From a plasmid: a stretch of 32,029 nucleotides of DNA. Positions 1,415 through 31,903 of the stretch are shown piece after piece; position 1 is the first letter of the stretch; every line of letters begins with the position of its first letter. The DNA is taken from the sequence record NZ_CP094937.1; one strand, given 5' to 3'. The notes under the pieces were generated by a model. The model worked only from the letters and a program-made list of their open reading frames with translations, was not told the DNA's origin and did no database searches. The position numbers and the translations under genes are program-made.

Positions 1415-1451
1415 AGCGTAGGATAGCGGAGCAACGGTTTTATCCTACGCT
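1415..1451 (+). other. Hairpin with a 10-bp perfect stem (AGCGTAGGAT/ATCCTACGCT) and a 17-nt loop AGCGGAGCAACGGTTTT
   Basis: Read directly. It is paired with 31871..31903. Confidence 0.6.
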
Positions 1452-1599
1452 TTATTAAACCTAAATACTTTTTTACCGTAACCCACTTCCAATAATCTAA
1501 AAGTATATATAAAATTAATAAATTTTAATTTCAAAATTAAATATATAGTCCTAAATGTGAAGGTCCTATAAAATAACAATTATATAAGGAGTGATATTA

Positions 1600-1716
1600 T
1601 TGGAAAAAGTAAAAGTTAAATCTAGAAAAAAAAGAGAATCTTTTATAACTATAGATATGGCTATTAAAGGTGGTATTATTTCATTTATATTACTAAGCTT
1701 AGTTTTATTTATATAG
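1600..1716 (+). CDS. Candidate 38-aa small membrane peptide (LEKVKVKSRKKRESFITIDMAIKGGIISFILLSLVLFI), TTG start
   Basis: Strong RBS TAAGGAGTG 7 nt before TTG. Basic N-terminus plus hydrophobic C-terminus. A perfect intrinsic terminator follows immediately. Confidence 0.35.
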   Translation: MEKVKVKSRKKRESFITIDMAIKGGIISFILLSLVLFI

Positions 1717-1738
1717 GTTTGGTTAAAATTTAAAAAAT

Positions 1739-1772
1739 AGGTTATAGCTTTTTGAGCTATAACCTGTTTTTT
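1739..1772 (+). terminator. Rho-independent terminator (11-bp perfect stem AGGTTATAGCT/AGCTATAACCT followed by a T6 run)
   Basis: Read directly: aggttatagct ttttg agctataacct gtttttt. Confidence 0.7.
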
Positions 1773-1888
1773 AAATTTATCGAACCTAATATAACTAAAC
1801 GCAAAGGGAAAGGTGGTGGGGGAGCAGAGAGCGCGGTGGGAGAAGTATGGCCAAGATGAAACGTAATAAATAGTAAGCACAAAAATAA

Positions 1889-1955
1889 AGCTACATATTA
1901 GCTCATATCCTAATAAAAAAATCCTATGTTATATGAGTTAATATGTAGCTTCATT
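1889..1955. repeat. 21-bp inverted repeat (1 mismatch) around a 22-nt loop: AAGCTACATATTAGCTCATAT ... ATATGAGTTAATATGTAGCTT
   Basis: Read directly. Sits in a 460-bp leader upstream of the DUF1659 operon, near a purine-rich tract at 1800-1850. Confidence 0.5.
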
Positions 1956-2189
1956 TCGTATGTCTTAGTTTTTATGTAGTGTAATCTTGGAACATACTGG
2001 GGCTGATTAACCGCAGGTTTAACAGCGTACAGTTCTTTTTAATTATATAAGCTCATGCGTAGCATTTATTTATAAAAATTTTTTTCATCAATAATCTCAC
2101 TCCTATATAATTCCCAACTATCTTTTAGGACTTAATCGAGCCTTTTTACTACACTTAAGTTAAATTAATTTTTCAAAGGAGGAATGAAA

Positions 2190-2438
2190 ATGCCAGATAT
2201 GAAATTAGCTCCAAATGCTTCAGAAGTTGCTCAAATGTCAGCTTTAAGAATCAAATATGACTGTGGTTTAGGTGACAACGGAAGAACAATAGTTAAAACT
2301 AGAAGTTTTTCAAACGTTAAAAACGATGCAAAAGTAGTTGATGTTTACAACGTAGCTGAGATATTAAACGGTCTACAAAAACATGACGTACTATCTGTTG
2401 TAAAAATAGACAACACAGAATTAACACCAGCAAATTAA
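2190..2438 (+). CDS. DUF1659-family small protein
   Basis: Sequence pattern (SALRIKYDCGLGDNGRTIVKTRSFSNVKNDAKVVDVYNVAEIL) matches the small DUF1659 proteins that pair with DUF2922 in Firmicutes. AAGGAGG RBS; the ATG at 2190 has better spacing than the one at 2184. Confidence 0.6.
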   Translation: MPDMKLAPNASEVAQMSALRIKYDCGLGDNGRTIVKTRSFSNVKNDAKVVDVYNVAEILNGLQKHDVLSVVKIDNTELTPAN

Positions 2439-2464
2439 TTTTAAATAAGAAAGGGGATTAAAAA

Positions 2465-2698
2465 ATGAGAAATATAGAAACTAGATTATTAATGGTTTTC
2501 TCTACAACTCTTGGAAGGAAAGTAAGCTTATTTGTATCAGATCCTAAAGAAGATATAACTGAAGCAGAAATAAAAGAGGCTATGGACCAAATAGTTGCTA
2601 AAAATGTATTTGCGCCTAGATTCGGAGAAGAACTTGAAACAGCTTTAGAAGCAAAAGTAGTTCAAACTGCAACTACTGGATATGACTTAGTTATATAG
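2465..2698 (+). CDS. DUF2922-family small protein
   Basis: MRNIETRLLMVFSTTLGRKVSLFVSDPKEDITEAEIKEAMDQIVAKNVF is the characteristic DUF2922 pattern. GAAAGGGG RBS. Confidence 0.6.
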   Translation: MRNIETRLLMVFSTTLGRKVSLFVSDPKEDITEAEIKEAMDQIVAKNVFAPRFGEELETALEAKVVQTATTGYDLVI

Positions 2699-2707
2699 TA
2701 ACACATG

Positions 2708-2738
2708 GAACGTCTCTTTGAACTTCTGAGGGACGTTC
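2708..2738 (+). promoter_or_regulatory. Conserved inter-gene stem-loop (GAACGTC...GACGTTC) between the DUF2922 and yvrJ-like genes, followed by a T-run
   Basis: Read directly. The same block recurs, with the stem disrupted, in the decayed copy at 5217-5262. Confidence 0.4.
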
Positions 2739-2775
2739 TAATCAATTTTTAAAGTTTAATTGGAGGAATAACTCG

Positions 2776-2931
2776 ATGGAACTAGATTTAATGGCTCTAG
2801 TGTCAAATTTAGGATTCCCTGCTATCGTTACAATGTATTTGTTAATTAGAATAGAAGGTAAGCTTGAAAATTTGAGTACTAGTATAAATTCACTTAGTTC
2901 AAATATATATGAATTGAATAATAAAAAATAG
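2776..2931 (+). CDS. yvrJ: YvrJ-family small membrane protein (51 aa; MELDLMALVSNLGFPAIVTMYLLIRIEGKLENL...)
   Basis: Not in the ORF track because it is shorter than the cutoff. GGAGG RBS 6 nt upstream of the ATG. The sequence matches the YvrJ family signature (LVSNxGFP...YLLxRxExKL). Confidence 0.6.
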   Translation: MELDLMALVSNLGFPAIVTMYLLIRIEGKLENLSTSINSLSSNIYELNNKK

Positions 2932-2978
2932 AGAGTATATCTATTGAATTTTTCAAAAGATACACTCTCTATTTTTTA
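2930..2978. terminator. Bidirectional intrinsic terminator (13-bp stem with 1 mismatch, then T7) between convergent genes
   Basis: agagagtatatct ... agatacactctct atttttt. Confidence 0.6.
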
Positions 2979-3000
2979 TTTAATATATTTTTTAAACTAG

Positions 3001-3891
3001 TTAGTTCATCCAACTAGTCCTCCAACTCCCATCTTCATAAATTATTTCATTAGTATTGGTGCCCTCATAGAAACTTGTTGCATTATAACACGCTTTATAA
3101 AATGCAAAATATAAGTTCTGCTTATTGTCATAATACAATTTATTTGTAAATAATATCTCTGCAGTTTTATCTTTATTAGTTAACTCAATAAAATCTTTAT
3201 TTCTAGATTTTATTATTAAGTCCTTATCTTTTATTAACTTATTAAGAATTATATTTAACTTTTCTTTTTTTAATTCTAAAAGTTGATTTTTTTCTTCATT
3301 AAACATTTTTAAATTATTTTTATCGAAGGGAATATTTTTTAAAGTAAGCTCTTCTTTTTCCGCATCTTTTAATTTTTTATTATCTATCAAATCTCCAAAT
3401 TTTTCAATTTTCGAATGTATAAAATCTTGATCAAATTTTAGATTTTCACTTTCAATATTTATTAAATTTTTATTATCAGGAACATCTGATTTCTCTTGAA
3501 TTTCAAAATCAAAATTATTATTTGAATTTAATATAGGTGCTAAATCATTCAATGTAACATGTATAGTTTTAATATCCTCATAAGTTAAAACTTGTGAGGA
3601 ACTATCAGAATTGCCTAATGGTGTAGATGTACAATAATATACAAAATCTAAGTTACTTTGACTATTGCTTTGAGGAACTATATATGCTCCTGCAAATACT
3701 GGAGTATCATTACAATAATCATTATTCAGACTTCCTTCATCAGAGTTACGATTGCTAATATACTTAATTACCTCTTCATCTAAGCGTTTTTTTAAATTTT
3801 GATATTGAGTCTGAGATAAATCAGTCTTATTAAAATAACCTTTTGAAAGGCTTTCAACTTTAGCATTATCTTTTGAATTAATTAATTCCAC
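3001..3891 (-). CDS. Hypothetical Asn/Lys-rich protein. It is in frame with the upstream lipoprotein ORF and separated from it by a single TAA, so it may be the distal part of one longer lipoprotein gene
   Basis: Long ORF. Only a GTG start, with GGAG abutting it, and no internal Met for about 180 codons. Same frame as 3904..4233. Confidence 0.45.
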   Translation of the reverse strand: MELINSKDNAKVESLSKGYFNKTDLSQTQYQNLKKRLDEEVIKYISNRNSDEGSLNNDYCNDTPVFAGAYIVPQSNSQSNLDFVYYCTSTPLGNSDSSSQVLTYEDIKTIHVTLNDLAPILNSNNNFDFEIQEKSDVPDNKNLINIESENLKFDQDFIHSKIEKFGDLIDNKKLKDAEKEELTLKNIPFDKNNLKMFNEEKNQLLELKKEKLNIILNKLIKDKDLIIKSRNKDFIELTNKDKTAEILFTNKLYYDNKQNLYFAFYKACYNATSFYEGTNTNEIIYEDGSWRTSWMN

Positions 3892-3903
3892 TCCAAATTT
3901 TTT

Positions 3904-4233
3904 TTAAAAAAATTCTTTATCATAATTAATATTAAATGTAATTGTATCTCCATTTTTAAAATTACCATTTTCCTTTTTAGATTCTTTAGTTGTAGGAACT
4001 ATTTCAATGAAATAGTCAGATTCATCTAAAAGAACTTCAGCATTTTTTAGCCCTAATTCGTATTTTAGAAATTTCTCTTCATCGAAAGTACATTCTATTT
4101 TTCCCTTACCACTGTATCCACTAATGGAATAATCAAAGTAATTTGCTATATCTTTCTTTTTAGTTCCACATCCAACTGTAAATATACCTATGCATAGTAT
4201 GAGTAAAACAACTAAATATTTAAGTTTTTTCAT
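3904..4233 (-). CDS. Lipoprotein (signal peptide with lipobox FTVGC)
   Basis: MKKLKYLVVLLILCIGIFTVGCG... is a classic Gram-positive lipoprotein signal. Confidence 0.6.
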   Translation of the reverse strand: MKKLKYLVVLLILCIGIFTVGCGTKKKDIANYFDYSISGYSGKGKIECTFDEEKFLKYELGLKNAEVLLDESDYFIEIVPTTKESKKENGNFKNGDTITFNINYDKEFF

Positions 4234-4423
4234 AAATTTACTGTCTCCTATATTTTTTGTATAACTTTAATATTAAGTTAGCTCTAGTTTTTTGTAAATA
4301 TTTACCAAAAAAGTTTGAATTTTACTTACAATATTAATATATTTACTCAAAGAAGGCCTCCATAATCTATTTAGATATAGAGACCTTCTTTATAACTATT
4401 TTGTTAAAAATCAAATTTACTAT

Positions 4424-4590
4424 CTACAATTACGAATAATAGCCCTAAAATAGCTTTCAGACTTTCTGTACTTACTAGCCAATTCCTTTGTATTAAATCC
4501 ATTAAACGCTTCTATAATTTCTCTATCACGAGATTCTTTATATATCATCTTTTCAGCAGGAAAGTACACATATATCCCTCCAAATTCTTA
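4424..4590 (-). pseudogene. N-terminally truncated copy of the Mor-like regulator gene at 12386..12640 (C-terminal ~48 codons, about 80% nucleotide identity)
   Basis: Direct nucleotide comparison with 12386-12560. An in-frame TAA lies just upstream of the conserved EFGG...YFP block. Confidence 0.6.
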
Positions 4591-4703
4591 TGAGATATAT
4601 GTTAAGTCCACAAAATAACCTCATCTAAAAGTGATAAGGAGATTCTCTCAAATAGTTTATTCAGTAGGACCATTTAAAAGAATATCCGTACTACATAAAA
4701 AAA

Positions 4704-4739
4704 AACCACATATTTATAAAAACCCATTTTTCGATACAC
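4704..4739 (+). repeat. Copy 1 of a 36-bp conserved motif: AACCACATATTTATAAA(G/A)A(G/C)CCATTTTTC(G/A)(A/T)(T/C)(A/G)CAC
   Basis: Matches the copies at 10713, 20702 and 20824, all in the same orientation. Confidence 0.6.
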
Positions 4740-4765
4740 ATACTTTTTAATGCGTATATATGTTA

Positions 4766-4880
4766 TTTGTAATATTAACTCTTTTGAAGTTGTATTTTCT
4801 ATTAACATTTGGAGTAATGTTTTATCACCATGAACTACTTTGTCTAAAATTATATTAATTTTGCTTTTGGGATACATCTA
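4766..4880 (-). pseudogene. Fragment of a parA-like gene (homologous to codons ~56-83 of the ParA at 6008..6814)
   Basis: The translated LDKVVHGDKTLLQMLIENTTSKELILQ matches ParA LYKVVHDDKTLFQMLTENTTAKEVILK, and the nucleotide sequence aligns with 6570-6670. The listed ORF 4674..4877 is a chimera of this fragment plus the 36-bp repeat. Confidence 0.6.
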
Positions 4881-4970
4881 TTAATAAAACTCTATTAATT
4901 TTTTACTAAATTCAATAGCTGTAAATATTGTTATAGTTGTCTTTCAAACCCAACCTTTAGCATTTAAAAT

Positions 4971-5022
4971 TAAAAATAAATTAAAAATAAATTTTATAAA
5001 ATTTATTTTTAATTTATTTTTA
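4971..5022. repeat. Symmetric array: 2 x TAAAAATAAAT, a central palindrome, then 2 x ATTTATTTTTA. Looks like a centromere or operator site
   Basis: Read directly. AAAAATAAATTTTATAAAATTTATTTTT is a perfect 28-bp palindrome. Confidence 0.5.
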
Positions 5023-5076
5023 ATTTTAAATAGCATTATTATAGAATTAATTTTAAATAATAAAGCGGATTTAAAA

Positions 5077-5403
5077 ATGAGAAATATAGACACTAAATTA
5101 TTAAGTGTTTTCTCTATAATGATTTAAAAGGATAATACAATTTAGGCATAAATAGAGGTAAAAGTAGTTCAAACTTCAACTAATGGATATGACTTATTTG
5201 TATATTAACTCTTGAAACATCTCTTTGAACTTCTGATTGACGTTCTAATCAATTTTAAAGTTTAGGAATAACCCTAGTATCAATCCAAGACTCCTTTATA
5301 TCGTTACAATATATTTGTTAGTTAGAATATATTGTAAACTTAAAAATTTGAATACTAGCATAAATTCACTTAGTTCAAATGTATATGAATTTAATAAAAA
5401 TAA
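5077..5403 (+). pseudogene. Decayed second copy of the DUF2922 and yvrJ-like region (a stop after 16 codons, with remnants of both genes and of the inter-gene stem-loop)
   Basis: Nucleotide similarity to 2465-2930: atgagaaatatagacactaaattattaagtgttttctct..., ...agtagttcaaacttcaactaatggatatgactta..., ...tcgttacaatatatttgttagttagaata... Confidence 0.6.
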
Positions 5404-5605
5404 ATATACATCTCTTTATAAAAAATTCCCTCAATTTGTCTATATATTTACATGTATTATTTTTATATACTTAAATCTTTAAAACTCCATCTATAATAAA
5501 GAATTCATAAAAACAATTTTAGATGAATTAAATTCAGCTAAAATTGTTTTTATGAAAATTCTATGATATACTCCCTAAAACTTTATATTTTTTCAATTTT
5601 AAAAT

Positions 5606-5643
5606 AATGTTTAAATAAATTATTTTTAATTTATTTAAACATT
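5606..5643. promoter_or_regulatory. Perfect 16-bp inverted repeat (AATGTTTAAATAAATT, 6-nt spacer, AATTTATTTAAACATT) overlapping the stop codon of the parA partner gene. Candidate protein-binding site
   Basis: Read directly. Made only of A and T, so it is more likely a DNA-binding site than a terminator. Confidence 0.45.
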
Positions 5644-6007
5644 ATTTATTATTTTTTTTAACTTTATTTTCTTTATCATATTTTTTTACCATCTCTTGAA
5701 CTTTGAAATCACTAGGTAAATTAGCTTTAGTAGTTTTTACAGTACTTTTTATTAAGTTGCTAATTGTCTTTTGAACTGTTGTATTTTTTAGAACAGATAC
5801 AGATTTTAATATTTCTAATTCCTCTTGCTCTAAATAAATTGTAAGCGGAGATTTTTTTACTTTTTTTTCTTCTTTCATATCAAGTAAGTTTACACCATCA
5901 ATGTCTATATCAATATTATTTTCTATAATTGAATCAACTTTATTTTGATAATCATTTTTTCTAATTTTTATATCTGATACATCTTCTTTAAATATATCTA
6001 AAGCCAT
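5642..6007 (-). CDS. Small ParA partner protein (ParG/ParB-like centromere-binding protein of a type Ib partition system)
   Basis: Its start codon overlaps the parA stop (TAAATG), which indicates translational coupling. Small size (121 aa), charged and K-rich. The assignment rests on position only. Confidence 0.45.
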   Translation of the reverse strand: MALDIFKEDVSDIKIRKNDYQNKVDSIIENNIDIDIDGVNLLDMKEEKKVKKSPLTIYLEQEELEILKSVSVLKNTTVQKTISNLIKSTVKTTKANLPSDFKVQEMVKKYDKENKVKKNNK

Positions 6008-6814
6008 TTATAAAACCTCCTTAGCCTTTAACTCTTCTATAAATTCATTAAAATCACTTCTTACTTTGTGAGCTTTTTTAGTTTTTCTACAATAGTCTTC
6101 TAAATCCATTTTATTTAAAATAGCATTTCTAACTACTGTTGTTTCACTTATTTTAGCTTGTACCAAATCTTTTTGTATATTTTCAAACTTATCTAGGTAA
6201 CTATTAAATAAATCTCCTGTACTTAACTTTCTAGTTGTATACGAATTTATAACTACAGCTCTTTTAGTTTTTAATTTAATATCTAAAAACTCTAAATCTT
6301 GTTTAAACTTTTGATAGAATAACTCACATCCTCTTATTGATGCAATATCTTGGTACTCAATAGGTGTAATTATAGAGTCTGATATTAACATAAAGTTTCT
6401 AGCTATAAGATCATATGATGGTGATAAATCTACAAATACATAATCATATTTTTCTATATCTTCTATATTATTTTTAAACCATCTCCATACTGCTTTTTCT
6501 CTTCCCATTTGGGTTGATAAATATTCCGATAATACACTTAAACTAATATCACTTGGTATTATATCTATATTTTTAAATTCCTCTACAGGTGATTTTAATA
6601 TTACTTCTTTTGCAGTTGTATTTTCTGTTAACATTTGGAATAGTGTCTTATCATCATGAACCACTTTATATAAAAATTGTGTTAAATTTGCTTGAGTGTC
6701 TGCATCTATTAATAATACTTTTTTTCCTTCTTTACTCAACTTCATAGCTGTAAGTATTGTAAGAGTTGTCTTTCCAACTCCTCCTTTAACATTGAAAAAT
6801 GAACATATTTTCAT
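6008..6814 (-). CDS. parA: ParA/Soj-family partition ATPase (deviant Walker A KGGVGKTT)
   Basis: MKICSFFNVKGGVGKTTLTILTAMKLSKEGKKVLLIDADTQANL is the canonical ParA N-terminus. At 268 aa it fits type Ib. Confidence 0.9.
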   Translation of the reverse strand: MKICSFFNVKGGVGKTTLTILTAMKLSKEGKKVLLIDADTQANLTQFLYKVVHDDKTLFQMLTENTTAKEVILKSPVEEFKNIDIIPSDISLSVLSEYLSTQMGREKAVWRWFKNNIEDIEKYDYVFVDLSPSYDLIARNFMLISDSIITPIEYQDIASIRGCELFYQKFKQDLEFLDIKLKTKRAVVINSYTTRKLSTGDLFNSYLDKFENIQKDLVQAKISETTVVRNAILNKMDLEDYCRKTKKAHKVRSDFNEFIEELKAKEVL

Positions 6815-6829
6815 AATTTACACCTCATT

Positions 6830-6960
6830 ATTTTAAATTTAAAAACAAATTATTTTTAAATTATTTTAAATTTTTTTTAAATTTTCCTAAACATTTTTTT
6901 AGAATTATTATAACATTATTTTAAATTCAATATCAAATCAAATATTTTAAACTTCTTTAT
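6830..6960. promoter_or_regulatory. AT-rich region upstream of parA with reiterated TAAATT(A)TTTT units. Candidate partition centromere and promoter/operator
   Basis: Read directly. It sits where type Ib systems carry their centromere. Confidence 0.4.
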
Positions 6961-7106: not shown

Positions 7107-10100
7107 CTATAACCCCATATAATTATTTTTAGCAATAAACTCATTGCTTCTCTTAACATATTCCTTACACGAAGTTACCTCTTCTAGTATATATTTATCT
7201 TTATTATTTTTTCTATCACACATAAGCATATCAAAAGTTTCAATCATCTTTAAATGTACCCATCTATCCATAGGAAATTCTTCTAAAAACTTATTTAAAT
7301 TCTCCATTGCTATGGTATATTCACCTTTTTCTATATTTACTAATCCAATTCCTTTATATGATCTCTTTTCACCAAACTCTAATCCTTTTTTAAAATATTT
7401 ATTAGCTTCATCATAATTCTCTTGTTCCATAAAAATATCTCCCATAGTAAGATATGAATTAGAATAATGTACAGGAGAATACTCAATAGCTTTTTTAAGG
7501 CATTCATATGCACAATCATATATCCCTTTACCCATATAAACTCTACCAAAGTTATTATATAACTCAGCTGCCAAGTACCCTTTCCACTCCTCTATAGTTT
7601 CTATATTTATTCCAAGTAAATTATTATACTCCTTTAATCTATCATTCATATTGTTTATAGAGTCAAAACTATTCATATAGTCTTCAAGCTTATCCTCTAA
7701 GATTACTTTATAAAGTCTAATGGCCTTATCATACTCTTGAGAATAAAGTGCATTATTCGCATCTGCAACTAATTTATTAACTATATCTTGTATATATTTA
7801 GCATCAAAATCTTCATAGCCACTTTCTAACGCAACAATATCCCCATACTCATTAAACGTATTATTTATTGCATTTCCAAAGTTCAAACTCTCTAAATATT
7901 CATAACTCATCTTAATAGAGTTAACCTTCTTATTAGACTTAAATATATCAACTCTAATTAAATTTATTTCTTCACCTTCTGAATTATGTAGTCTCATAGG
8001 TATATCATTGTAGAATAAGTTCATATGAATAGTAACTTTATATTTTTTTATATTCCCTGACGATTCAATACAATCCCTGAAAGCCTCACTTATATTTGAT
8101 ATAGCATTATGCATATCTACATTCTCCACTGTACATATATGAGTTGTAGAATCATAACCTTGTAATACTATATCTATATTACCTTTAGTATATACAAAAT
8201 GTTTATTGAAAATCTTATTTAAAACAGAGAAAACATCGTTATAACTTAAAGAACCTGTACTATTTTCGATTCTTATACTAGTTTCATTTTGTTTTCCAAG
8301 CAAATTAGTTAATAAATCTCCTCTGATTTCTTCCATTTTTTCTTTACATCTAAGCATTCCTTCTTTATCTTTAGCTTTTTTATAAGCATAATATGCCTTT
8401 CCATAATTTAAGGTTTCTTCTAACCTTTTACCTTCTTTTAGCCAACCTTGAGCAGTTGTAATTTTTAACATTTCTAAAAGTTCTAAGTTTATTTCCTTTA
8501 AATCCTCTACAGATTCTTTTCCAAATAAAGTCTTAACTATATTGGTATCTTTTTCTAAAAATCCAATAATATTTATCCCTCTAGTTATTGCTACGTATAA
8601 AAGATTAATAAAATGTCTTAAATAAGATTGATTAGATCCATTTTTAATTAACTTCCAATAATTTTTATAAGTAGAAATAAAGTTTACACAGAATATATTT
8701 TTATACTCTAAACCCTTTATTTCTTCTATAGTAAACACCCTTCCTTCATTAGCACCTTCAACTACAAACTGATGCTTTTCAACATATGTAGGAACTACAA
8801 TAGCACAATAGTCTCTTTCATTTACTTCCTCTACTAATTTTTTTATATTCTCAATCTTACAAGGTATTATATAAGGTTTCTTTCCCTCTCTTATACACTC
8901 TTCATGTAAGTCGTATTCACTTTTTAATTTTCCAATATTTTCAACTCTTAAATCTATCAACTTATTTATAAAATCAACTACTCCAGAACTGTTTCTATAG
9001 TTTTTATTTATAAATCTTTCTTCATATGAAATTTTATTTTCATAAAAATATGATTTTAAAAGTTTAAAATCGAAGTTGCTATTGTTTATAGTTTGATTTA
9101 TATCTCCTGCAAAAACTATATTTTCCTTTATATTTGATATATTATAAATAAGTTGAAGGTGATTATTTCTGAAGTCTTGTATTTCATCTACAAATACAAA
9201 ATCATATTTAGGTAAATTTATTTTGTTATTATTACTTTCGTTAACAATCATTTCTATTAACCTAATTTCATCTATGTAACCATTCATTTTTATCCAAGTT
9301 TCATACCTATTATAAATAGTTTTGATAAACTGTATTTCCTTATCACTAAAACCATCATGTGTATAACTCTCTTTGTACATATTTATATTATTAATTTCAT
9401 TGTAAATAATAATAGTGCTTAAATTAAAGTCATTAAATCTATAACATGTTTCTAAAAACCATTTTTCAAAATTACTATATTTTATTATCTTTTCTGGATT
9501 TACTCCCAGTTTTTCTGCACAAAATTCATTTATACATAAAAAATCAATACTATTATTTTCATACTTCTTAAATTTATCAAAATAAGTTTTTGCCTTAGAT
9601 TTTAACAATGATGAATAAGTTATATATGCAGATTTAATATTTAGTTCATTATTTAATATTAACTTATAAATACCTATCATAGTTTTTCCAGAACCTGCAC
9701 ATCCTGAAATTATAACTGGCTTTCCTAGTACCTTCAAACAATCAAATTGACTTTCATTTAAGTAATATAAATAATCATCATTATCCTCTTCTAATGCTAT
9801 AGCTATATATTCATCTTCCAGCACTATAGATATTAAATTTTCTAATCCTAGAGATAAATATCTATTTACATACTCTTCAACCTCATTTTTTATATTTTCA
9901 TCAAACTCATCTTCTTCATATGAATTTAAGTCAAGTTCTAGTGTTTTTTCTAAATGTAAATCTAGATTGTTGTTCATTTCTTTACCTTGTACTATTTGAC
10001 TATCATGATTGCAATATTTCAAGAATACGATTTCATTATTATTGGTATCATCAAATGTGAATAGAATTCTATCTCCACTATTTACTCTAAATTTATATAT

Positions 10101-10256
10101 ACTTGTTCCTATTATTTTTCTTATCCATAAACCTTTTGGTATATGCTTTAGACAGTTTGAACTTGTTATTGCATCCGTAAAATAATTTAATTTACTTAGT
10201 ATGAAGTTTTTTCCTTTTATATCTATATCTCTTAAAAATTCTTGTGATATTCTCAT
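7107..10256 (-). CDS. 1049-aa multidomain protein: N-terminal RelE/ParE-toxin-like domain (~90 aa), UvrD-like SF1 helicase core (Walker A GCAGSGKT, motif II DEIQD, motif III GDINQ, motif IV YRNS, motif VI VAITRG), a ~480-aa C-terminal extension ending in TPR-like repeats
   Basis: Helicase motifs read directly from the translation. The N-terminus KGLWIRKIIGTSIYKFRVNSGDRILFTFDD...IVFLKYCNHD resembles the RelE/ParE core (YR.RVGDYRIIY...H). The C-terminal YDCAYECLKKAIEYSP...YDEANKYFKKGLEF segments are TPR-like. Confidence 0.75.
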   Translation of the reverse strand: MRISQEFLRDIDIKGKNFILSKLNYFTDAITSSNCLKHIPKGLWIRKIIGTSIYKFRVNSGDRILFTFDDTNNNEIVFLKYCNHDSQIVQGKEMNNNLDLHLEKTLELDLNSYEEDEFDENIKNEVEEYVNRYLSLGLENLISIVLEDEYIAIALEEDNDDYLYYLNESQFDCLKVLGKPVIISGCAGSGKTMIGIYKLILNNELNIKSAYITYSSLLKSKAKTYFDKFKKYENNSIDFLCINEFCAEKLGVNPEKIIKYSNFEKWFLETCYRFNDFNLSTIIIYNEINNINMYKESYTHDGFSDKEIQFIKTIYNRYETWIKMNGYIDEIRLIEMIVNESNNNKINLPKYDFVFVDEIQDFRNNHLQLIYNISNIKENIVFAGDINQTINNSNFDFKLLKSYFYENKISYEERFINKNYRNSSGVVDFINKLIDLRVENIGKLKSEYDLHEECIREGKKPYIIPCKIENIKKLVEEVNERDYCAIVVPTYVEKHQFVVEGANEGRVFTIEEIKGLEYKNIFCVNFISTYKNYWKLIKNGSNQSYLRHFINLLYVAITRGINIIGFLEKDTNIVKTLFGKESVEDLKEINLELLEMLKITTAQGWLKEGKRLEETLNYGKAYYAYKKAKDKEGMLRCKEKMEEIRGDLLTNLLGKQNETSIRIENSTGSLSYNDVFSVLNKIFNKHFVYTKGNIDIVLQGYDSTTHICTVENVDMHNAISNISEAFRDCIESSGNIKKYKVTIHMNLFYNDIPMRLHNSEGEEINLIRVDIFKSNKKVNSIKMSYEYLESLNFGNAINNTFNEYGDIVALESGYEDFDAKYIQDIVNKLVADANNALYSQEYDKAIRLYKVILEDKLEDYMNSFDSINNMNDRLKEYNNLLGINIETIEEWKGYLAAELYNNFGRVYMGKGIYDCAYECLKKAIEYSPVHYSNSYLTMGDIFMEQENYDEANKYFKKGLEFGEKRSYKGIGLVNIEKGEYTIAMENLNKFLEEFPMDRWVHLKMIETFDMLMCDRKNNKDKYILEEVTSCKEYVKRSNEFIAKNNYMGL

Positions 10257-10658: not shown

Positions 10659-10712
10659 AGTAATCTCCTTTTACTAATATTATATTTATATATCCTCCGT
10701 ATATAGGGACAG

Positions 10713-14355: not shown

Positions 14356-14862
14356 CTAAAGTTTAATTTCAAATTGATTATACAAATTACCATTTTTTTC
14401 ATGACTTTTAAAGAATACTCCATTATTATTTAAAATAACTTTTTCAGAGCGTATATTAGCTTTAGCACAATTTAATATAACTTTATCAAGCCCAATTTCT
14501 TTTGCATGCGGTAAGGCTAATTCTAGTATTTTATTTCCATATCCATTACCTCTATGTCTTGGAGCAATATCATACCCTATATGACCATCAAAAGGAACAT
14601 TCCCATGTCTAATTCTAATAGAGCCTAATACTTGTTCTTTATCATTTACCAACCAGAAACTAGAACAAGGAACATATCCTTCAGGAAGGTCAACACCTTT
14701 AGCATTATTGTTAAGTTTACTTACATATTGTTTAAAATCTTTATAGGCATCTCTATAAACATACATGTACTCTGTATCCCCTGATACCTTGTAGTCATTA
14801 ATATATTCTAAAAAGCTATTTTCATATTTTATACTTGGTATTTCCAATCTAATATTCTCCAT
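14356..14862 (-). CDS. GNAT-family N-acetyltransferase (passenger gene inside the transposon)
   Basis: Motif RHRGNGYGNKILELAL (acetyl-CoA-binding Q/RxxGxG/A). 168 aa. Confidence 0.75.
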   Translation of the reverse strand: MENIRLEIPSIKYENSFLEYINDYKVSGDTEYMYVYRDAYKDFKQYVSKLNNNAKGVDLPEGYVPCSSFWLVNDKEQVLGSIRIRHGNVPFDGHIGYDIAPRHRGNGYGNKILELALPHAKEIGLDKVILNCAKANIRSEKVILNNNGVFFKSHEKNGNLYNQFEIKL

Positions 14863-14995
14863 ATAAATTTCCCCCTTTATTTACTCTTGACCATAAAAAC
14901 TTAATATTTAGAATTTTTATATTATTATAGCATTAAACTCTAATACTTTTAACTATTCTCTATAAAATGGTTAATGATTTATAAATAAAATACAT

Positions 14996-15010
14996 TATGA
15001 TATAATCATA
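14996..15010. promoter_or_regulatory. Candidate res subsite I (palindrome TATGAT-ATA-ATCATA) in the intergenic region upstream of tnpR
   Basis: Read directly. In Tn3-family elements the res site lies upstream of tnpR. Tentative. Confidence 0.3.
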
Positions 15011-15120
15011 ACTTACAAGTTTTGATTATAAAAAGTGCTCATTGAAAAATCAATACTTTGAGCATGGTCATAACTAGTAATCATAAATGACTATAAAATT
15101 TATACATCAAGGAGCAAAAT

Positions 15121-15699
15121 ATGATTTACGGATATGCAAGAGTTAGTACTAAATCTCAAGAAGATAACACTAGTTTAGAAAATCAAATAAAAATATTGAA
15201 AGAAAATAACTGCAATGAAATTTTTAAGGAAGTACATACTGGAGCTACAATGGAAAGACCTAAATTTATAGAACTAGAGAGAAAATTATGCTCAGGCGAT
15301 ACTTTAGTTATCACTAAACTGGATAGGTTTACAAGAAGCACAGAAAAAGGAATTAGCAAGATAAAAGAATTAGCCGAAAGAGGTATCAAAGTAAATATCT
15401 TAAATATGGGTGTTGTAGACTTGTCTAATGCCATGGGAAAGATGATGTTTACTATATTATGTGCGTTCTCTGAGTATGAAAAAGACTGTATAGTTGAGAG
15501 AATGAAAGAGGGCAAAGCAATTGCAAAACAAAATCCTAATTTTAGAGAAGGCCGAAAAAAAGTACATAAAGATGAGAAAGTAAAACATGCTCTAGATTTA
15601 TTAAAAACTAATACCTATAAACAAGTTGAATCTATGACAGGCATAAGCGTAGCTACATTAGTTAGAGCAAAGCGTAAAGAAAAAGAGAAAAATTTATAA
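15121..15699 (+). CDS. tnpR: Serine recombinase, the transposon resolvase TnpR (catalytic Ser in [11 protein letters not shown]-terminal HTH)
   Basis: [22 protein letters not shown]... is the canonical resolvase/invertase N-terminus. AAGGAG RBS. Confidence 0.9.
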
Positions 15700-15724
15700 T
15701 TTATTTTAAGAAGGACTGACATGA

Positions 15725-25267: not shown

Positions 25268-25299
25268 GTGTGTTCCTCACTTATCTTTGAATTAATTAT

Positions 25300-26924: not shown

Positions 26925-27155
26925 ACCCTTTTATCCTTTCAAGTGTCATTTTCTATTTCAATAAGTATACTATCATTTTGAAATGTTGCAAATAAAAATT
27001 TGTCGAATTTTTGAATATTAAAAAACAAAAGAATAAACCCCTTTCAAAAAGTAGACTTTTTGACGCACACAGTTTATGTCTTTTGCGTGAATGGTAGTTT
27101 TTTAGGTATAAATGGTATGCTTTCAAATAATCAGTTTAAATATATATATAAATAA

Positions 27156-27191
27156 TAAAAAAATGAAGAACTATTGCTCTTCATTTTTTTA
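27156..27191. terminator. Bidirectional intrinsic terminator (ATGAAGA/TCTTCAT stem flanked by an A-run and a T-run)
   Basis: aaaaaaatgaagaactattgctcttcattttttt. Confidence 0.6.
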
Positions 27192-27214
27192 CTTAATCTT
27201 AAATTATATTATAA

Positions 27215-28027
27215 CTATATAATATTTCTTATTGTTTCAATCTCTTCTATCGTTAAATCTGTAAGATCTCTTATAGTTTCGTTATCCATTCCCTTTAATA
27301 TAGCTTTTTTGGCTATTTCTATAGCTTTCTTTTTTTCACCAACTTCTTTTCCTTCTTCAATAAGGCTCTTTCCTAATTCAGTCACTCTAAGTTCCTCCTT
27401 TACCTTTTCTAAATCTTTACCACTTAAAAATTTATTAGCAAAAGCATATAAAATAGATTCCATATCTCTTTTATATGGACTAGTTATTTCTTTACTTAAC
27501 TTTATAGCCTTTAAGATCTTTTCGCTTTTATCCATTTTTCCACCCATAACTGGTGTAAATGTAAGTTTTATAATATCTTGTTTATCTATATCATTCCCAC
27601 AAGATAACTTCTCTATTATTTCATCAAATACTTTATCTCCATCTTCATTAATCATAGATATAGCATTTACCTTATAAGTATTCATACCGCAATTATATTC
27701 ACTAACAGGATTTTTTATATCGCCTGAGTAAACAACATATGTAGTAACCTTCTTTTTAGTTTGATGGTTAAGCAGCGCTTCATAAGTTCTAAATCTCATT
27801 AAGTCATCTACACCCTTGTTAGTAGTTTGAAATTCGAAATGTATGTAACTATCATCTTCCATTAAGAAAGTATAATCCATATACATATTCTTACTGTCTA
27901 AAACAACTAATTCAGTTGGCCCAATATCTTTTACTTTTTTATCTATTCCAAAGAACTTAAGACCTTCTTCTGCAAAAATATCCATTGCTCTTTTCATTAT
28001 AAAATCTTCATAATTTGGCTTTTTCAT
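27215..28027 (-). CDS. Rpn/YhgA-like (Transposase_31, PD-(D/E)XK) recombination-promoting nuclease
   Basis: N-terminus MDIFAEEGLKFFGI... and C-terminus LIEEGKEVGEKKKAIEIAKKAILKGMDNETIRDLTDLTIEEIETIRN are typical of the Rpn family. Confidence 0.65.
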   Translation of the reverse strand: MKKPNYEDFIMKRAMDIFAEEGLKFFGIDKKVKDIGPTELVVLDSKNMYMDYTFLMEDDSYIHFEFQTTNKGVDDLMRFRTYEALLNHQTKKKVTTYVVYSGDIKNPVSEYNCGMNTYKVNAISMINEDGDKVFDEIIEKLSCGNDIDKQDIIKLTFTPVMGGKMDKSEKILKAIKLSKEITSPYKRDMESILYAFANKFLSGKDLEKVKEELRVTELGKSLIEEGKEVGEKKKAIEIAKKAILKGMDNETIRDLTDLTIEEIETIRNII

Positions 28028-28074
28028 TAGTTCACCGCCTTTAATTAATTATATCACCTTATTTATTAAAATAC

Positions 28075-29166
28075 CTACCAAAACACGTCCATTTCGTTCT
28101 TATGAGCTACATCTTCTTTTTCTTCTAACTTATATTCAACTATTTTATTATCCAAACAACCTTTGAAAAACTTGTATGAACTAACTTTAATAATTTCTAC
28201 ATCATCTCTCTCCAGAGTTATAGATACTGCATCATCAAAAGCTTTTTCCATGTATTCGTTTTTAAAATCAATATTTCTAAAATCCTTCTTAAAACTTCTT
28301 AAAGTCCCCTTAGTAAATATATCTTCATCTGGAACTAAAAACTCAAATTCACTAATTTTATCATTATCTACATTGTCACTAGAAATATCATAGTTTGATT
28401 TAAATGTTCTCTCTTCTTTATTATCAAAAATAGAATTATCATTAGTAAAATACTTTCTCTTGTCCAAATCTTTAACGTAAAAGTCAATAGAATCAACTTT
28501 TCTACCAACTTTATTTTCCTTAAAATCTATCTCAAAATATCCCGTTTCATTAAGTTCTTTTATAGCAGGAAGAATAACTCTTCTTTTAAAATTTCCGTAT
28601 TCAGGATAACTTTCATCTAATTGAAGATACATTTTTAAATCCTCTAAACTATAATTTATTACTGATTTTGTTCCACTCCAAAGTCTAAGAAGATCATATA
28701 ATCTTTGCGAATAATAATTTTTCATACTAAATAATGCTGCTAAATTAGCTGGAGTGTATCCTGTTTGCAAGTAATTATTTAATAAATCATAAATTTTTTC
28801 AGATGCTTCAATTTTAAAAATTTTCCTCTCATCATCATATGTAAAACCATTTAAAAATCCATACTCTCCCCAAATAATTCCTTTTTTATTTTCTTTTTCT
28901 TCCATAAAAAATATACTTTTCTTTCTTAATGAACTTAAAGATTTAGAAATATTCTTTATCGTCTTATCTTTTGCATGTTTAATTATTTGCTTAAATTCAT
29001 CATGTGATATCTCACAACTTAAAACTCCGTTACTTTCCTTTTGAAGTTTATACATCATAAGTAAAAAAATTCTATTTTCAACTAGTGTTAAACTATATTT
29101 GGCTTGAATAAGTAAATTGTTTTTCATCAATATTTTAGGATTTTGAATATCTCTATAATCATTCAT
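28075..29166 (-). CDS. rep: Rep_3-family theta-replication initiator
   Basis: N-terminus LLIQAKYSLTLVENRIFLLMMYKL matches the Rep_3 signature, and iterons lie immediately upstream. Confidence 0.75.
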   Translation of the reverse strand: MNDYRDIQNPKILMKNNLLIQAKYSLTLVENRIFLLMMYKLQKESNGVLSCEISHDEFKQIIKHAKDKTIKNISKSLSSLRKKSIFFMEEKENKKGIIWGEYGFLNGFTYDDERKIFKIEASEKIYDLLNNYLQTGYTPANLAALFSMKNYYSQRLYDLLRLWSGTKSVINYSLEDLKMYLQLDESYPEYGNFKRRVILPAIKELNETGYFEIDFKENKVGRKVDSIDFYVKDLDKRKYFTNDNSIFDNKEERTFKSNYDISSDNVDNDKISEFEFLVPDEDIFTKGTLRSFKKDFRNIDFKNEYMEKAFDDAVSITLERDDVEIIKVSSYKFFKGCLDNKIVEYKLEEKEDVAHKNEMDVFW

Positions 29167-29220
29167 ATTAATACCTCTTTATATAATGTTTATATTAACT
29201 ATAAATTTACAATTTAAAAA

Positions 29221-29336
29221 TGTCAACTTAAATTAATTGACATTTTTATCAATTCCAAAGTGACATATTAAAATTCCAATCTGACATTTTAAAGTTCCAA
29301 AGTGACATATTAAAATTCCAATCTGACATTTTTACT
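29221..29336. repeat. Replication origin: palindrome AATGTCAA...TTGACATT followed by four 21-bp iterons (TTCCAAAGTGACATATTAAAA / TTCCAATCTGACATTTTAAAG, repeated as a 42-bp tandem duplication)
   Basis: Read directly; it lies directly upstream of the Rep_3 gene. Confidence 0.8.
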
Positions 29337-29516
29337 ACTTTAAATCGCAGTATTTCCAAAGCTTTAAGCTATGTCTAAATACTTTAAATACTATTAAATA
29401 ATTCTTTTAAATACAGTAAAGACTAGTAAAGGTAATTTTTCTGTTCTAATCTGTCCTATTTTCAAACACAATACTTTATTTATAACTATAAAATGTGCAA
29501 CAAAAAATTCACTTCG

Positions 29517-29557
29517 TTTGAGCGACTATGTCTGCGAATCATTTCATGTCGCTCAAA
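29517..29557 (+). other. GC-rich hairpin (TTTGAGCGAC, 21-nt loop, GTCGCTCAAA). Its first half recurs at 31675..31704, and the adjoining block AAATTTCATGGCGTCAACG recurs inverted at 22249..22270
   Basis: Read directly. Confidence 0.5.
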
Positions 29558-29655
29558 TTTCATGGCGTCAACGTCCACTCGGTAAACTCGTGTCCCGTTA
29601 CTTAAACGACTTAGTCCATTGCGCAAAAAAGACACATATTCTTATGTGCCTTTTA

Positions 29656-29973
29656 TTAATATAAAGATATAGCATTTTTAAAACTTTCAAATTCCCTTTT
29701 CATTTTTTCTAAATCTACATTATCTCCAACATTTTCTATAAACTTAAAATCTAGAAGTAAATTTATATTATTGTTTAAATCCTCTCTTGTCCACCCCTTA
29801 GGCTCCATAAGCTCATATATATACTTTATATCTATTCCACCTTCAAAATTCGATATAAGGGCATATACAAGTCTATTATCTATATTTAATACATTAACTA
29901 AGCTATCATTTACCATAACAACATTATTAATGTTTTTATACATTAAATCTATTCTGATATTTTTAACTACCAT
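29656..29973 (-). CDS. Hypothetical protein (105 aa)
   Basis: AAAGGGTGA RBS. No recognisable motif. Confidence 0.45.
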   Translation of the reverse strand: MVVKNIRIDLMYKNINNVVMVNDSLVNVLNIDNRLVYALISNFEGGIDIKYIYELMEPKGWTREDLNNNINLLLDFKFIENVGDNVDLEKMKREFESFKNAISLY

Positions 29974-30019
29974 ATAATCACCCTTTTCAATATTTAATTT
30001 TAATTCATAACTCTTCTTA

Positions 30020-30200
30020 TAAGGTCAATTTCCTCAATAGATAAGTCCGTAAGATCTCTTATAGTTTCATTATCCATTCCTTTTAAAATTGCCTTCTTTA
30101 CTATCTCTATAGCTTTTTCTTTTTTTCCTTCATCTATTAAACTTTTTCCTAACTCAGTCACTTTAATTTCTTTCTTTACTTTTTCAAATCTTTTATACTT
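30020..30200 (-). pseudogene. Fragment of a second Rpn-family nuclease gene (C-terminal ~60 codons), homologous to 27225..27420
   Basis: Nucleotide alignment: ...gtaagatctcttatagtttc(g/a)ttatccattcc(c/t)ttta... and ...ctttttcc(t/c)aa(t/c)tcagtcact... are shared. Confidence 0.6.
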
Positions 30201-30261
30201 AAAAAATTATTTATTACCTTAAATTTTTAACATCTAATATTCGTATATTAATTAAGGTTTT

Positions 30262-30897
30262 TTATTTTATATTATCATAAAACTTAATGTATTGATTTAA
30301 TATGTAATTCAATAACTCTTGTTGCGTTACACCACTTTCTTTTAAGTCCTCTGCTATTCTTTCGAATCCTTTTTGAACTTCTAAATCAAGTTTCAAAGTC
30401 TTAGCTCTATAATCCCTTTTCCCTTGCTTAAAATTGTATATTTCTTTTACTATATCTTCTTTAGTCTCCATATTACTTTCCGTAATATCTTTGTAATATT
30501 CGTTTGATCCATCTAATAAAGCTTTTATTCTATCTGCATTATCCATTAAATATGTTAATCTATCTTTTTGATTATTTGTTATCTCTAAATTAGTTGTAAT
30601 ATTGTTTATTACTGGAATATTATTGTTTGGCTCCGGGGTAGTTTTCGTATTACTTTCTGTAATATTACTGTAATATTTCTTTTGTTCCCTCGCTTCAACC
30701 TCAGCATTTTCAAGTATGTACTGTTTTTTACTCTGGCTATATTTATATCCAGCTTTACTAAAATTTTTACTTATAGTCTTTCTAGAAATCCCTATTTCTT
30801 CAGAAAATGAAGTTAATGTTTTTCCTTCTTTTAAGATGTTATTTACGTATTCTATTTGCTCGAATATATCTATATTTTTAAACTGTTCTTTATTCAA
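30262..30897 (-). CDS. HTH-domain protein (N-terminal HTH LTSFSEEIGISRKTISKNF), putative plasmid regulator; contains a repeated ITESN motif
   Basis: Motif read directly. The function is inferred only loosely. Confidence 0.45.
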   Translation of the reverse strand: MNKEQFKNIDIFEQIEYVNNILKEGKTLTSFSEEIGISRKTISKNFSKAGYKYSQSKKQYILENAEVEAREQKKYYSNITESNTKTTPEPNNNIPVINNITTNLEITNNQKDRLTYLMDNADRIKALLDGSNEYYKDITESNMETKEDIVKEIYNFKQGKRDYRAKTLKLDLEVQKGFERIAEDLKESGVTQQELLNYILNQYIKFYDNIK

Positions 30898-31052
30898 GTT
30901 TTCACCTCCTGTAAATATTACTTATTGTAATATTATATATTACTTCTCTATGTCTTTCTGTATGTTTTTTATAATAATATAAATTTATAAAAAAGTTTTT
31001 AATTATAATTCCTATTAACATATAGGTTTTAATTTATAAATACATAGGAAAA

Positions 31053-31089
31053 GAGTTGAAGTAGGATAAAAAAATTCCTACCTCAACTC
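31053..31089 (-). terminator. Intrinsic terminator on the minus strand (14-bp stem GAGTTGAAGTAGGA/TCCTACCTCAACTC, T-rich tail), upstream of 30262..30897
   Basis: Read directly. Confidence 0.5.
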
Positions 31090-31870
31090 TCTACATTTAA
31101 ATATTATACGGTCAATCTCATGGGTCAATTCTGATCTCACAGCTTGAAGTAAAAAACACTTCAAACTGTAATGCCAGAAATACAAATATCTATATTTTAT
31201 TTTCCAACTAGATACTAATAATTTAATTTCTCTAGGCTTAATTTAACTAACTTTTTAATATTACTTTTTGTAATATTTTCGTATTACTACTTGTAATATA
31301 TGATATTACTTTTATATTACTGTATATGTACCTATTGATATAACTTCATCTTATCATTTTTATGGAGTTTGGCTTTCGCCACCGCGCTTTACGCTACAAT
31401 CTTTTTAGTAAAAAACACTAAAAAGGATTTTCACTTCAATCTCTAACTCAAAATCATCGTTCCATCACAATTTATATCTCTTTTAAAATTATATTAGTTT
31501 TAAATTTTTTACTTGTATATGACCTTACGGTCGTGCCCCTCTGACAAATCCTTAAAAGCACTTACACATCTCCGCCGATAACATATTTCACATACATCAT
31601 ATTACATATCATGTATTTTCATATCTTATAGCTCCATGTGTTCGTAACTTTTTAAGGATAGCCATTTGAGCGACTACGTCTGCGAACCACTTCACTCCCA
31701 TACGCCCAATGCCCTAACCTAATATTTGTATTACATACTTCCAATGAAACTTATACGACCTTCACATTTTGTATAACCAGCTAAATATGTTAATTTAAAT
31801 TTCTATATTTAATAATACTACTAGTAAAATCAACTTGGTTACGGTATGAAACTACTTTCGTGGTATCACG

Positions 31871-31903
31871 CATTGGATAAAACCGTTGCTCCGCTATCCA
31901 ATG
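31871..31903 (-). other. Second copy of the conserved-loop hairpin, inverted: stem CATTGGAT/ATCCAATG with the identical 17-nt loop
   Basis: The reverse complement of its loop equals the loop at 1425..1441. The stem sequence differs but still base-pairs. A second shared block TACCGTAACC lies about 30 nt away in both copies. Confidence 0.6.

Follow-up and report, generated by a model that had tools for sequence, protein, structure and literature searches.

The 32,029-nt plasmid sequence NZ_CP094937.1 (hereafter the window, meaning the whole stretch of DNA that was analyzed) carries, near both of its ends and in inverted orientation, a hairpin with an identical 17-nt loop, here called P1. P1 forms the first helix of an element of ~560 nt, which is conserved, specific to one strand, and made up of several domains. 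The element is divergently duplicated on the plasmid backbone; one of the two copies in the window is intact, and the other retains the 5' domain only (Table 1). Literature searches by motif, sequence, and hosts returned nothing describing the element, and a ~560-nt family with this architecture and a portable first hairpin appears to be undescribed. As to function, we tentatively prefer, with a probability of roughly 0.35 to 0.4, a reading in which the element would act in cis as an antitermination-like leader RNA.

The hairpin and the element that it opens

According to the original prediction, the two copies present the same loop on stems that differ in sequence and yet pair. Both sites were as described: the P1 stems differ between the copies, each is fully complementary, and the compensatory change is real. 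With up to 3 mismatches allowed, the loop occurs at exactly two sites in the window, against 0.01 expected, and the hairpins are, as had also been noticed, richer in G+C (51% and 45%) than the window as a whole (25.8%). A G+C-rich stem-loop within A+T-rich DNA could point to an ordinary intrinsic terminator family, or the similarity could be due to chance, but neither stem is followed by a U-tract, a terminator scan was silent at both sites, an invariant 17-nt loop is not terminator-like, and a conserved element continues 3' of the hairpin. Together with the covarying stems and the small expected number of loop matches, this effectively excludes both explanations and bears out the view that the hairpin is a functional structured element.

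The resemblance between the copies continues beyond the hairpin. A second common block, TACCGTAACC, lies 3' of both hairpins (1474-1483, +; 31846-31837, -), as predicted, and a third, AAATGTGAAGGTCSTATAA, follows ~70 nt further on (1555-1571, +; 31767-31751, -). The homology, first put at ~75 bp, thus covers ~178 nt between the two window copies (72% BLAST identity over 160 nt), and the intact copy continues as the ~560-nt element. In an nhmmer profile built from eight copies, positions 2-537 match 31918..31360 (-), and only positions 3-178 match 1403..1580 (+). Compared with NZ_CP094939.1 (3060-3601), the copy on the plus strand has lost the central and 3' domains (BLAST against loci L001, L003, and L004), and in related plasmids paralogy between the two copies extends over ~560 nt (67-70% identity). 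The strand that carries the intact element contains no open reading frame (ORF) of ≥40 aa across its length. We consider it very likely that P1 belongs to this larger conserved structured element.

Scans with the exact hairpin pattern yielded 25 loci in species-representative genomes, 2 viral contigs, and at least 120 metagenome loci. The genome and metagenome matches listed include at least 93 full-length copies, which fall into 32 clusters at 95% identity and come from Peptostreptococcaceae, their relatives, and gut metagenomes, often as divergent pairs; in gut and soil Peptostreptococcaceae, the element is widespread on plasmids. Over 92 distinct contexts, the P1 loop is near-invariant, with essentially one Y position varying, and is borne by at least 8 different, fully complementary outer stems. 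Internal-deletion variants also occur; these always keep the first ~180-230 nt and often the 3' domain, and the central domain is missing. A degenerate version of the hairpin pattern also matched GATAGTGGAGAAATCATTTTATC at ~30 gut-metagenome loci (L035, L045, and L047 among them), false positives without the stem, the flanks of which look coding and were taken for histidine kinase; such matches need filtering in any census of the motif. The AT-rich central pattern TGATATGNAATATGATGT was likewise found in viral contigs, where, apart from that in L031, the matches are apparently due to chance, several of them lying in giant-virus contigs.

The position of the copies near the two ends of the window had raised the possibility that they bound a ~30-kb segment, either invertible or mobile. 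Sequence comparison matches the window to plasmids of Paraclostridium bifermentans, and joining its end to its start produces 1430 nt that are collinear with plasmid NZ_CP094939.1 at 93.6% identity, so that the window is, by this alignment, a circular plasmid in linearized (circularly permuted) form. The apparent bracketing of the whole window is an artifact of linearization, and on the circle the two hairpins lie ~1.5 kb apart, diverging around an amidase gene. Divergent pairs 1.2-3.3 kb apart are found on three other P. bifermentans plasmids, on contigs of Romboutsia, Terrisporobacter, Filifactoraceae, and other Peptostreptococcaceae, and on metagenome contigs (loci L001, L003, L004, L013, L015, L020, L022, L026, L046, and L152). 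The inverted copies near both ends of the linear sequence and the serine recombinases encoded by the plasmid would suit terminal repeats of an invertible segment, but in related plasmids and in contigs of metagenome-assembled genomes the pair always diverges around amidase, c2, or ArdA genes, CP124692.1 carries one copy only, and the repeats are RNA-like genes of 67-72% identity with covarying helices rather than recombination sites. Terminal repeats are therefore effectively excluded as well.

RNAalifold, applied to an alignment of 29 sequences (A3), returned a fold consisting of P1, a P2 helix, a central multi-stem domain, and a 3' three-way junction. Standard pairs fill 95.2% of the paired cells in this alignment, compared with 35-43% when the partners are slid by 1-3 columns; 33 pairs have changed on both sides, compared with 4-14 in the slid controls; and none of 500 shuffles reached any of the observed covariation measures. 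Within P1, pair 30:60 is found as AU, GC, UA, and CG, and pair 32:58 as UA, AU, and GC. P2 is formed by ACCGNNAC of the second block and GUGNAGGU of the third, which vary in concert (block 2 NN/block 3 N: AC/G in 50, TA/A in 12, AA/G in 7): an A in block 3 is opposed by a block 2 U in 12 of 15 cases, and a G by a block 2 A in all 57. Two hairpin loops alternate between GNA triloop and GNNA tetraloop forms. The sense strand folds with -139.6 kcal/mol (z -4.6) and its complement with -100.8 kcal/mol, and this advantage of 39 kcal/mol assigns the structure to one strand. A further helix closing the 5' and 3' ends, between the AAAAGCUA box and a downstream GGUAUAGC, was considered and rejected as inconsistent across members.

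Signals that would mark a transcription unit surround this fold. In all lineages, a leader box of the form YTTAAAAGCYA stands 11-12 nt 5' of the P1 stem, and the sequence upstream of it is unconserved between lineages and often starts with the terminator of the preceding gene. Hexamers resembling a -10 element, several of them with a TG extension, cluster at a single distance from the AAAAGC box, a 3-nt window holding 19 of 30 where other offsets have ~2 each. This suggests, as far as promoters and transcript ends can be predicted from sequence, that transcription starts at the leader box, ~22 nt before P1. A consensus scan places a promoter-like site ahead of each window copy (Table 1), whereas an extracytoplasmic function (ECF)-type promoter composed of block 2 (GTAAC) and block 3 (CGTATAA) was rejected, the spacing of ~70 nt being wrong. 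The strong hairpin downstream of the intact copy would be a terminator of its unit or a barrier within it; at nearly all loci, an equivalent hairpin follows the element after 120-290 nt, with dG of -20 to -29 kcal/mol and often terminator-like on both strands. We think that the element probably works as RNA and infer an RNA gene that has a promoter to itself. The earlier suggestion of a small structured RNA motif thus names the right kind of object but not its extent: the hairpin does not stand alone as a small motif but opens an element of ~560 nt as its first helix.

Table 1. Coordinates of the element copies, their parts, and recurrent or backbone genes in the window.
Feature	Position	Strand	Sequence, evidence, or remark
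Intact element: leader box, P1, P2, central multi-stem domain, 3' Flavo-1-like domain	31360..31925	-	nhmmer, covariation, no ORF
Truncated copy, 5' domain only: leader box, P1, P2	1403..1580	+	nhmmer; BLAST
Promoter-like site, intact copy	31931..31960	-	TTGAAA, 18-nt spacer, TAGAGT; consensus scan
Promoter-like site, truncated copy	1364..1391	+	TTGAAA, 16-nt spacer, AATACT; consensus scan
Conserved leader box, probable transcript 5' end	31916..31925	-	TTAAAAGCTA; in all lineages
P1, intact copy	31871..31903	-	CATTGGAT / identical 17-nt loop / ATCCAATG
P1, truncated copy	1415..1451	+	AGCGTAGGAT-AGCGGAGCAACGGTTTT-ATCCTACGCT (stem-17-nt loop-stem)
P2 5' strand, intact copy	31838..31845	-	ACCGTAAC, within the TACCGTAACC block; RNAalifold pairing with block 3
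P2 3' strand, intact copy	31758..31765	-	GTGAAGGT, within the third common block; helix 4
P2 5' strand, truncated copy	1475..1482	+	
P2 3' strand, truncated copy	1557..1564	+	
Central multi-stem domain	31537..31666	-	AAUGGCUAUCC ... GUCAGAGGGGCA; helices 9-13: 43 pairs, 19 with compensatory changes
Short GNRA/GNA-capped hairpin	31520..31533	-	CGACC-GUAA-GGUCA; by-eye covariation GACC/GGUC, AGCC/GGCU, GGCC/GGCC
3' domain: three-way junction, Flavo-1-like core plus GGCGAAAGCC hairpin	31364..31449	-	GAGUU/AACUC closing; helices 14-19
Strong hairpin with T-rich tail, ~270 nt 3' of the element	31052..31090	-	dG ~-22 kcal/mol; terminator of, or barrier within, the unit
c0 gene, ~200-aa helix-turn-helix (HTH) protein	30262..30897	-	PHROG 2727, function unknown; recurrent 3' of one copy
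DUF1659-DUF2922-YvrJ operon	2184..2931	+	Recurrent 3' of the other copy; annotation of related plasmids and synteny
Amidase gene	584-1270	-	Between the two element copies
Rep_3 (theta) initiator gene	28075-29166	-	
PrimPol-like replication protein gene, 429 aa	20860-22149	-	PHROG 9432 (replication protein) and primase/polymerase families

The Flavo-1 module and other large RNAs

The core of the 3' domain is recognized by the Rfam model Flavo-1 (RF01705), which matches 31452-31376 (-) with 58.7 bits, compared with a gathering score of 42. Flavo-1 also scores above the gathering score in all 12 of the full-length-bearing loci tested, with sixteen further matches of 43.6-66.3 bits. Flavo-1 is a motif of unknown function that was found by comparative genomics in Bacteroidetes in 2010 (Weinberg et al. 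2010, PMC2864571), and its conserved internal-loop sequences, GAUUGNAGNGNAAAUCC ... GAUUGNANCGNAAAGC, match those of the element's 3' domain. In Bacteroidetes copies inspected with their flanks (supplementary alignment of PMC2864571), a closing helix, GCGU...ACGC, is added to the core, and the Rfam model is followed on its 3' side by a second hairpin, so the true Flavo-1 module looks like a three-way junction that is larger than RF01705 and has the same layout as the 3' domain. Because the scores exceed the gathering score and the closing helix and second hairpin correspond, the 3' domain is, on comparative grounds, a genuine Flavo-1 module. The motif has been described, however, as a stand-alone, multi-copy structure of ~76-110 nt in Bacteroidetes and Spirochaetes, whereas here it forms the last domain of an element on Firmicutes plasmids, and P1, P2, and the central domain are absent from the Bacteroidetes flanks inspected. 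Judged from these alignments, Flavo-1 is one module of the element, and the element as a whole is not a Flavo-1 RNA. The orientation of Flavo-1 relative to the direction of replication gave no clear bias (12 of 18 co-oriented in a hand count over the first part of the alignment, in three Bacteroidetes genomes with the origin assumed at 1).

At gathering scores, no Rfam family other than Flavo-1 matches anywhere in the window, and riboswitches, T-boxes, and other known RNA families were dismissed accordingly. The covariance models of ROOL, GOLLD, OLE, HEARO, and raiA have no match over 31200-32029 and 1200-1750, even at E-values up to 10. A megaplasmid long non-coding RNA of L. salivarius was later classed as ROOL. 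It was considered as an identity for the element (PMC5643018) and discarded, the window element matching no ROOL model. A separate Rfam match lies on a contig of a Terrisporobacter metagenome-assembled genome (L010), where a skipping-rope RNA (RF02924, 71.5 bits) occupies 351-434 (-), ~1 kb downstream of the element and on the same strand.

The lack of a covariance-model match bears on a different account of the element, in which it would be a stand-alone RNA of the 'ornate' kind (ROOL, GOLLD, OLE, raiA), trans-acting or self-assembling and indifferent to its neighbors, with P1 serving as a protein-binding or tertiary-structure module. The ornate non-coding RNAs, HEARO included, resemble the element in measuring ~0.5-0.8 kb, in having multiple domains and many covarying helices, in being carried by plasmids and phages, and in that their function is unknown; many ROOL RNAs are plasmid-borne, as the element is (PMC5737381, PMC5643018). 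The element is likewise large and highly conserved, down to unpaired nucleotides, and it has the look of an independent gene, with its own promoter-like site and the strong, often bidirectional terminator-like hairpin behind it; the next gene is convergent in ~7 loci. On the other hand, none of the Rfam models of this class matches, the element differs from these RNAs in occurring as divergent pairs and in having no tRNA association, and two diverged copies, each tied to its own downstream module across lineages, would be unexpected for a trans-acting RNA. We regard a stand-alone RNA as possible, if rather unlikely.

The lone hairpin of small replicons

Among the matches listed, six small rolling-circle or inovirus-like replicons, encoding at least 4 types of Rep, have P1 as a lone hairpin instead of the whole element. 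These comprise the C. aceticum plasmid CACET_5p (L002), with Rep_1 and Zot; an inovirus-like viral contig (L032) with a G2P/Phage_CRI protein, where the hairpin lies just 5' of rep; two ~2-kb contigs from one sample (L043 and L086), the Reps of which are Rep_1-like by eye from a KY..K motif; a 1409-bp circle (L096) encoding a Rep with a HUH-like motif (HYHVI); and a 1625-bp circle (L126) encoding a different, unrelated Rep, the last two recovered as tandem assemblies. The loop is the same, with C or U at the variable position, the stems covary (CTTGGAT, GGGGGGAT, GAGGGGAT, and CAAAATTGAT), and the hairpin is on the rep strand in all six replicons. On the CACET_5p strand that bears the hairpin, a pC194-type CTTGATA nick sequence follows ~150 nt further 3'; the circles L096 and L126 have a ~170-nt non-coding cassette including the hairpin in common although their Reps are unrelated, and L043 and L086 share the AAAAGCTA...ACTAGCA leader with the large element. 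The circles L096 and L126 consist only of the Rep gene, a small gene for a ribbon-helix-helix-like protein, and the hairpin cassette, and would rank among the smallest rolling-circle replicons.

These replicons also inform on why the loop is so constant. A pseudoknot between loop ACGGU and block-2 ACCGU was rejected: the loop C varies (C/U/G) and block 2 remains unchanged, and the loop is equally conserved in replicons without block 2. Because the loop is just as conserved in replicons that lack the remainder of the element, its constancy does not stem from a pseudoknot with the large element and must be due either to its intrinsic folding or to a host factor that recognizes it.

When unrelated rolling-circle replicons exchange a host-dependent cassette, that cassette has the look of a single-strand origin (PMC5703833), and by this analogy the lone hairpin is most likely part of one. 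The points of likeness to ssoA-type origins are a hairpin with a conserved loop, an exchangeable cassette, unrelated Reps, placement on the displaced strand, and a position 5' of the nick site; rolling-circle replication with the hairpin on the displaced strand, upstream of the double-strand origin, applies to these six replicons only and not to the window. At the level of motifs, the loop sequence TAGCGG agrees with the ssoA CS-6 sequence TAGCGT/A at 5 of 6 positions, which is not significant alone (PMC4598088), and local alignment to the ssoA RSB box (TTATGCCGAGAAAATTT-like) was no better than to shuffles at 7 of 8 sites (fraction 0.13-1.0), with L043 marginal at 0.04.

The original prediction had also listed a hairpin recognized in single-stranded form, such as an initiation signal, and the small replicons lend this idea indirect support. 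Extended to the window, it would make the element, or at least its 5' domain with P1, a folded stretch of single-stranded DNA that signals initiation or serves as an origin, recruiting the host's RNA polymerase or primase so that synthesis of the complementary strand is primed, with the strand-opposed copies flanking a replication or transfer region. Plasmid RSF1010 has two such signals, ssiA and ssiB, on opposite strands, as are the two copies of the window. Besides the lone hairpins, always on the displaced strand, the ~170-nt cassette, the classic single-strand-origin position in CACET_5p, and the CS-6 resemblance, this explanation could draw on the PrimPol-like replication protein encoded by the backbone plasmids, on ArdA beside the element in relatives, and on the two hairpin loops that vary between GNA and GNNA, a loop type that is also very stable in DNA. 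Several points speak against such a role in the window. The plasmid has a Rep_3 theta initiator and encodes no HUH Rep or relaxase; the RSB box is not significantly present near any copy; described single-strand origins (~160-250 nt; PMC5703833) are all less than half as long as the element; a multi-domain fold of 560 nt with a promoter-like site at a fixed distance better suits an RNA gene; and a divergent pair would leave only one copy in the functional sense on each strand. We consider a DNA signal unlikely as the role of the large element.

A candidate cis-acting leader

In the leader reading that we prefer, a ~560-nt gene for a structured non-coding RNA would belong to the backbone of a plasmid family of Peptostreptococcaceae and related clostridia, and P1 would be the stem-loop nearest to the 5' end of this RNA. 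The intact copy would head a unit running into the c0 HTH and Rep_3 genes, and the truncated copy a unit made up of a small ORF and the DUF1659-DUF2922-YvrJ genes, each transcribed from its own promoter. The RNA would act in cis on its own transcription unit: a conserved host factor, with RNA polymerase the most plausible candidate, would dock at the invariant P1 loop, the nascent RNA would modify the polymerase that made it, and processive antitermination of the HK022 put, EAR, canT, or conAn2 kind would carry transcription through the strong hairpin downstream.

Support for this reading comes largely from the neighborhood of the element, for which we clustered ORFs over the first 33 loci. 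Most of the 15 loci with a c0 gene have it 3' of the element and in the same orientation, an amidase gene and an excisionase-like HTH gene recur between the two copies, and a tree of 33 non-redundant copies contains at least 3 lineages in which one copy precedes c0 and the other DUF1659-DUF2922. Cis action is favored because two diverged copies are maintained per plasmid and each is tied to a specific downstream module across lineages, because the deletion variants keep the promoter-proximal 5' domain, because a strong hairpin follows the element, and because cis RNAs of 260-600 nt are known on Gram-positive mobile elements. The latter make RNA polymerase terminator-resistant in cis only, as reported for canT (PMC11658703) and conAn2 (PMC8191782), with sizes of 341-452 nt for canT of Tn916 and 260-600 bp for conAn2 of the pLS20 family. 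These antiterminators are large structured RNAs of Gram-positive plasmids and integrative and conjugative elements (ICEs); they sit just 3' of a promoter, are orientation-specific, precede terminators and backbone operons, and have RNA polymerase as their presumed target (PMC11658703, PMC8191782). The element resembles them in placement, with a -10-like element at a fixed offset 5' and the strong hairpin 3', an agreement that is positional only. In some lineages, ardA and a small ORF are situated directly upstream on the same strand, with a terminator between them and the element, a layout that recalls conAn1-conAn2; the c10 gene product, considered as a ConAn1 homologue, has no homologues in PLSDB. 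In the canT region itself (L185, 2166-2617, +), GATAGCGAGCGA next to a short hairpin weakly resembles the P1 loop GATAGCGGAGCAA, probably by chance and without a profile match.

Several observations weigh against the leader reading. Some element copies differ from the known antiterminators in having no co-directional gene 3': across 24 informative loci, the next gene of at least 70 aa is co-directional in ~17 and convergent in ~7, so that a downstream operon is not obligatory. Tn916 canT gave no nhmmer match, and the Rfam EAR (epsC) model has no match in the window or in the loci tested. In Flavobacterium psychrophilum, Flavo-1 copies lie in sense, in antisense, or outside transcribed regions (PMC9723704), a placement that fits a promoter-proximal leader poorly. 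An element of single-stranded DNA would also be compatible with the GNA/GNNA loop variation and with the setting in which P1 occurs in rolling-circle replicons. Finally, the binding of RNA polymerase by P1 is something that we purely infer, the sole and indirect pointer to this partner being that P1 is found in origin-like cassettes and that characterized single-strand origins bind RNA polymerase.

The sequences immediately 3' of the two copies have features of their own. Between the element and c0, at 31258-31320 (-), six GTAATAT/ATATTAC heptads are spaced by 10-12 nt, about one helical turn, and the same array is found 3' of the element in seven other loci (L005, L007, L009, L011, L021, L022, and L026); it is probably an operator or a centromere-like binding array, perhaps for c0. 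Directly 3' of the truncated copy, a hydrophobic ORF of 41 aa (19 aa from an internal ATG) occupies 1591-1716 (+), opposite a convergent terminator-like hairpin at 1739-1765 (-), a layout that resembles a type I toxin-antitoxin locus; the small ORF also follows the full-length copies in L001, L003, and L004. The DUF1659 and DUF2922 proteins correspond to the SroA/SroB pair of Staphylococcus aureus, which is reported to modulate the stability of sigS mRNA (bioRxiv 10.1101/2022.10.19.512975), and a functional link between these genes (2184-2698, +) and the upstream RNA element is conceivable.

Elsewhere, the plasmid encodes ParA, resolvases, and a Tn3-family transposon, and no tRNA or tmRNA was found in the window. 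In related plasmids, the PrimPol-like protein is labeled 'DNA-binding response regulator'; where these relatives lack an annotated Rep gene, it probably serves as the backbone replicase. GC skew was uninformative for locating the origin, as it tracks gene orientation. The Tn3-family module (14356-19878) contains a resolvase (15121-15699) and a transposase (15725-18679) with an adjoining GNAT gene and is also present in NZ_CP094939.1, and a 1049-aa protein encoded at 7107-10256 (-), which combines a UvrD-like helicase core with C-terminal TPR repeats, may have a role in defense or maintenance.

The lone hairpins and the large element could be reconciled if P1 docked RNA polymerase or another core host factor in two chemistries, as a priming site in single-stranded DNA of clostridial rolling-circle plasmids and inoviruses and as a nascent-RNA tether holding the ~560-nt RNA to the polymerase of two divergent backbone operons. 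We think this improbable, but, if true, it would define a new family of large polymerase-modifying RNAs and provide the first functional handle on Flavo-1, an orphan since 2010. Few large non-coding RNAs with many covarying helices are known from bacteria, and the majority have either opened up new biology or are still unsolved problems. The element is modular, its first hairpin circulating among tiny rolling-circle replicons and its last domain in Bacteroidetes, each independently, and this modularity makes its function testable. It connects three topics with few links between them: single-strand origins, the antitermination RNAs of mobile elements, and orphan RNA motifs.

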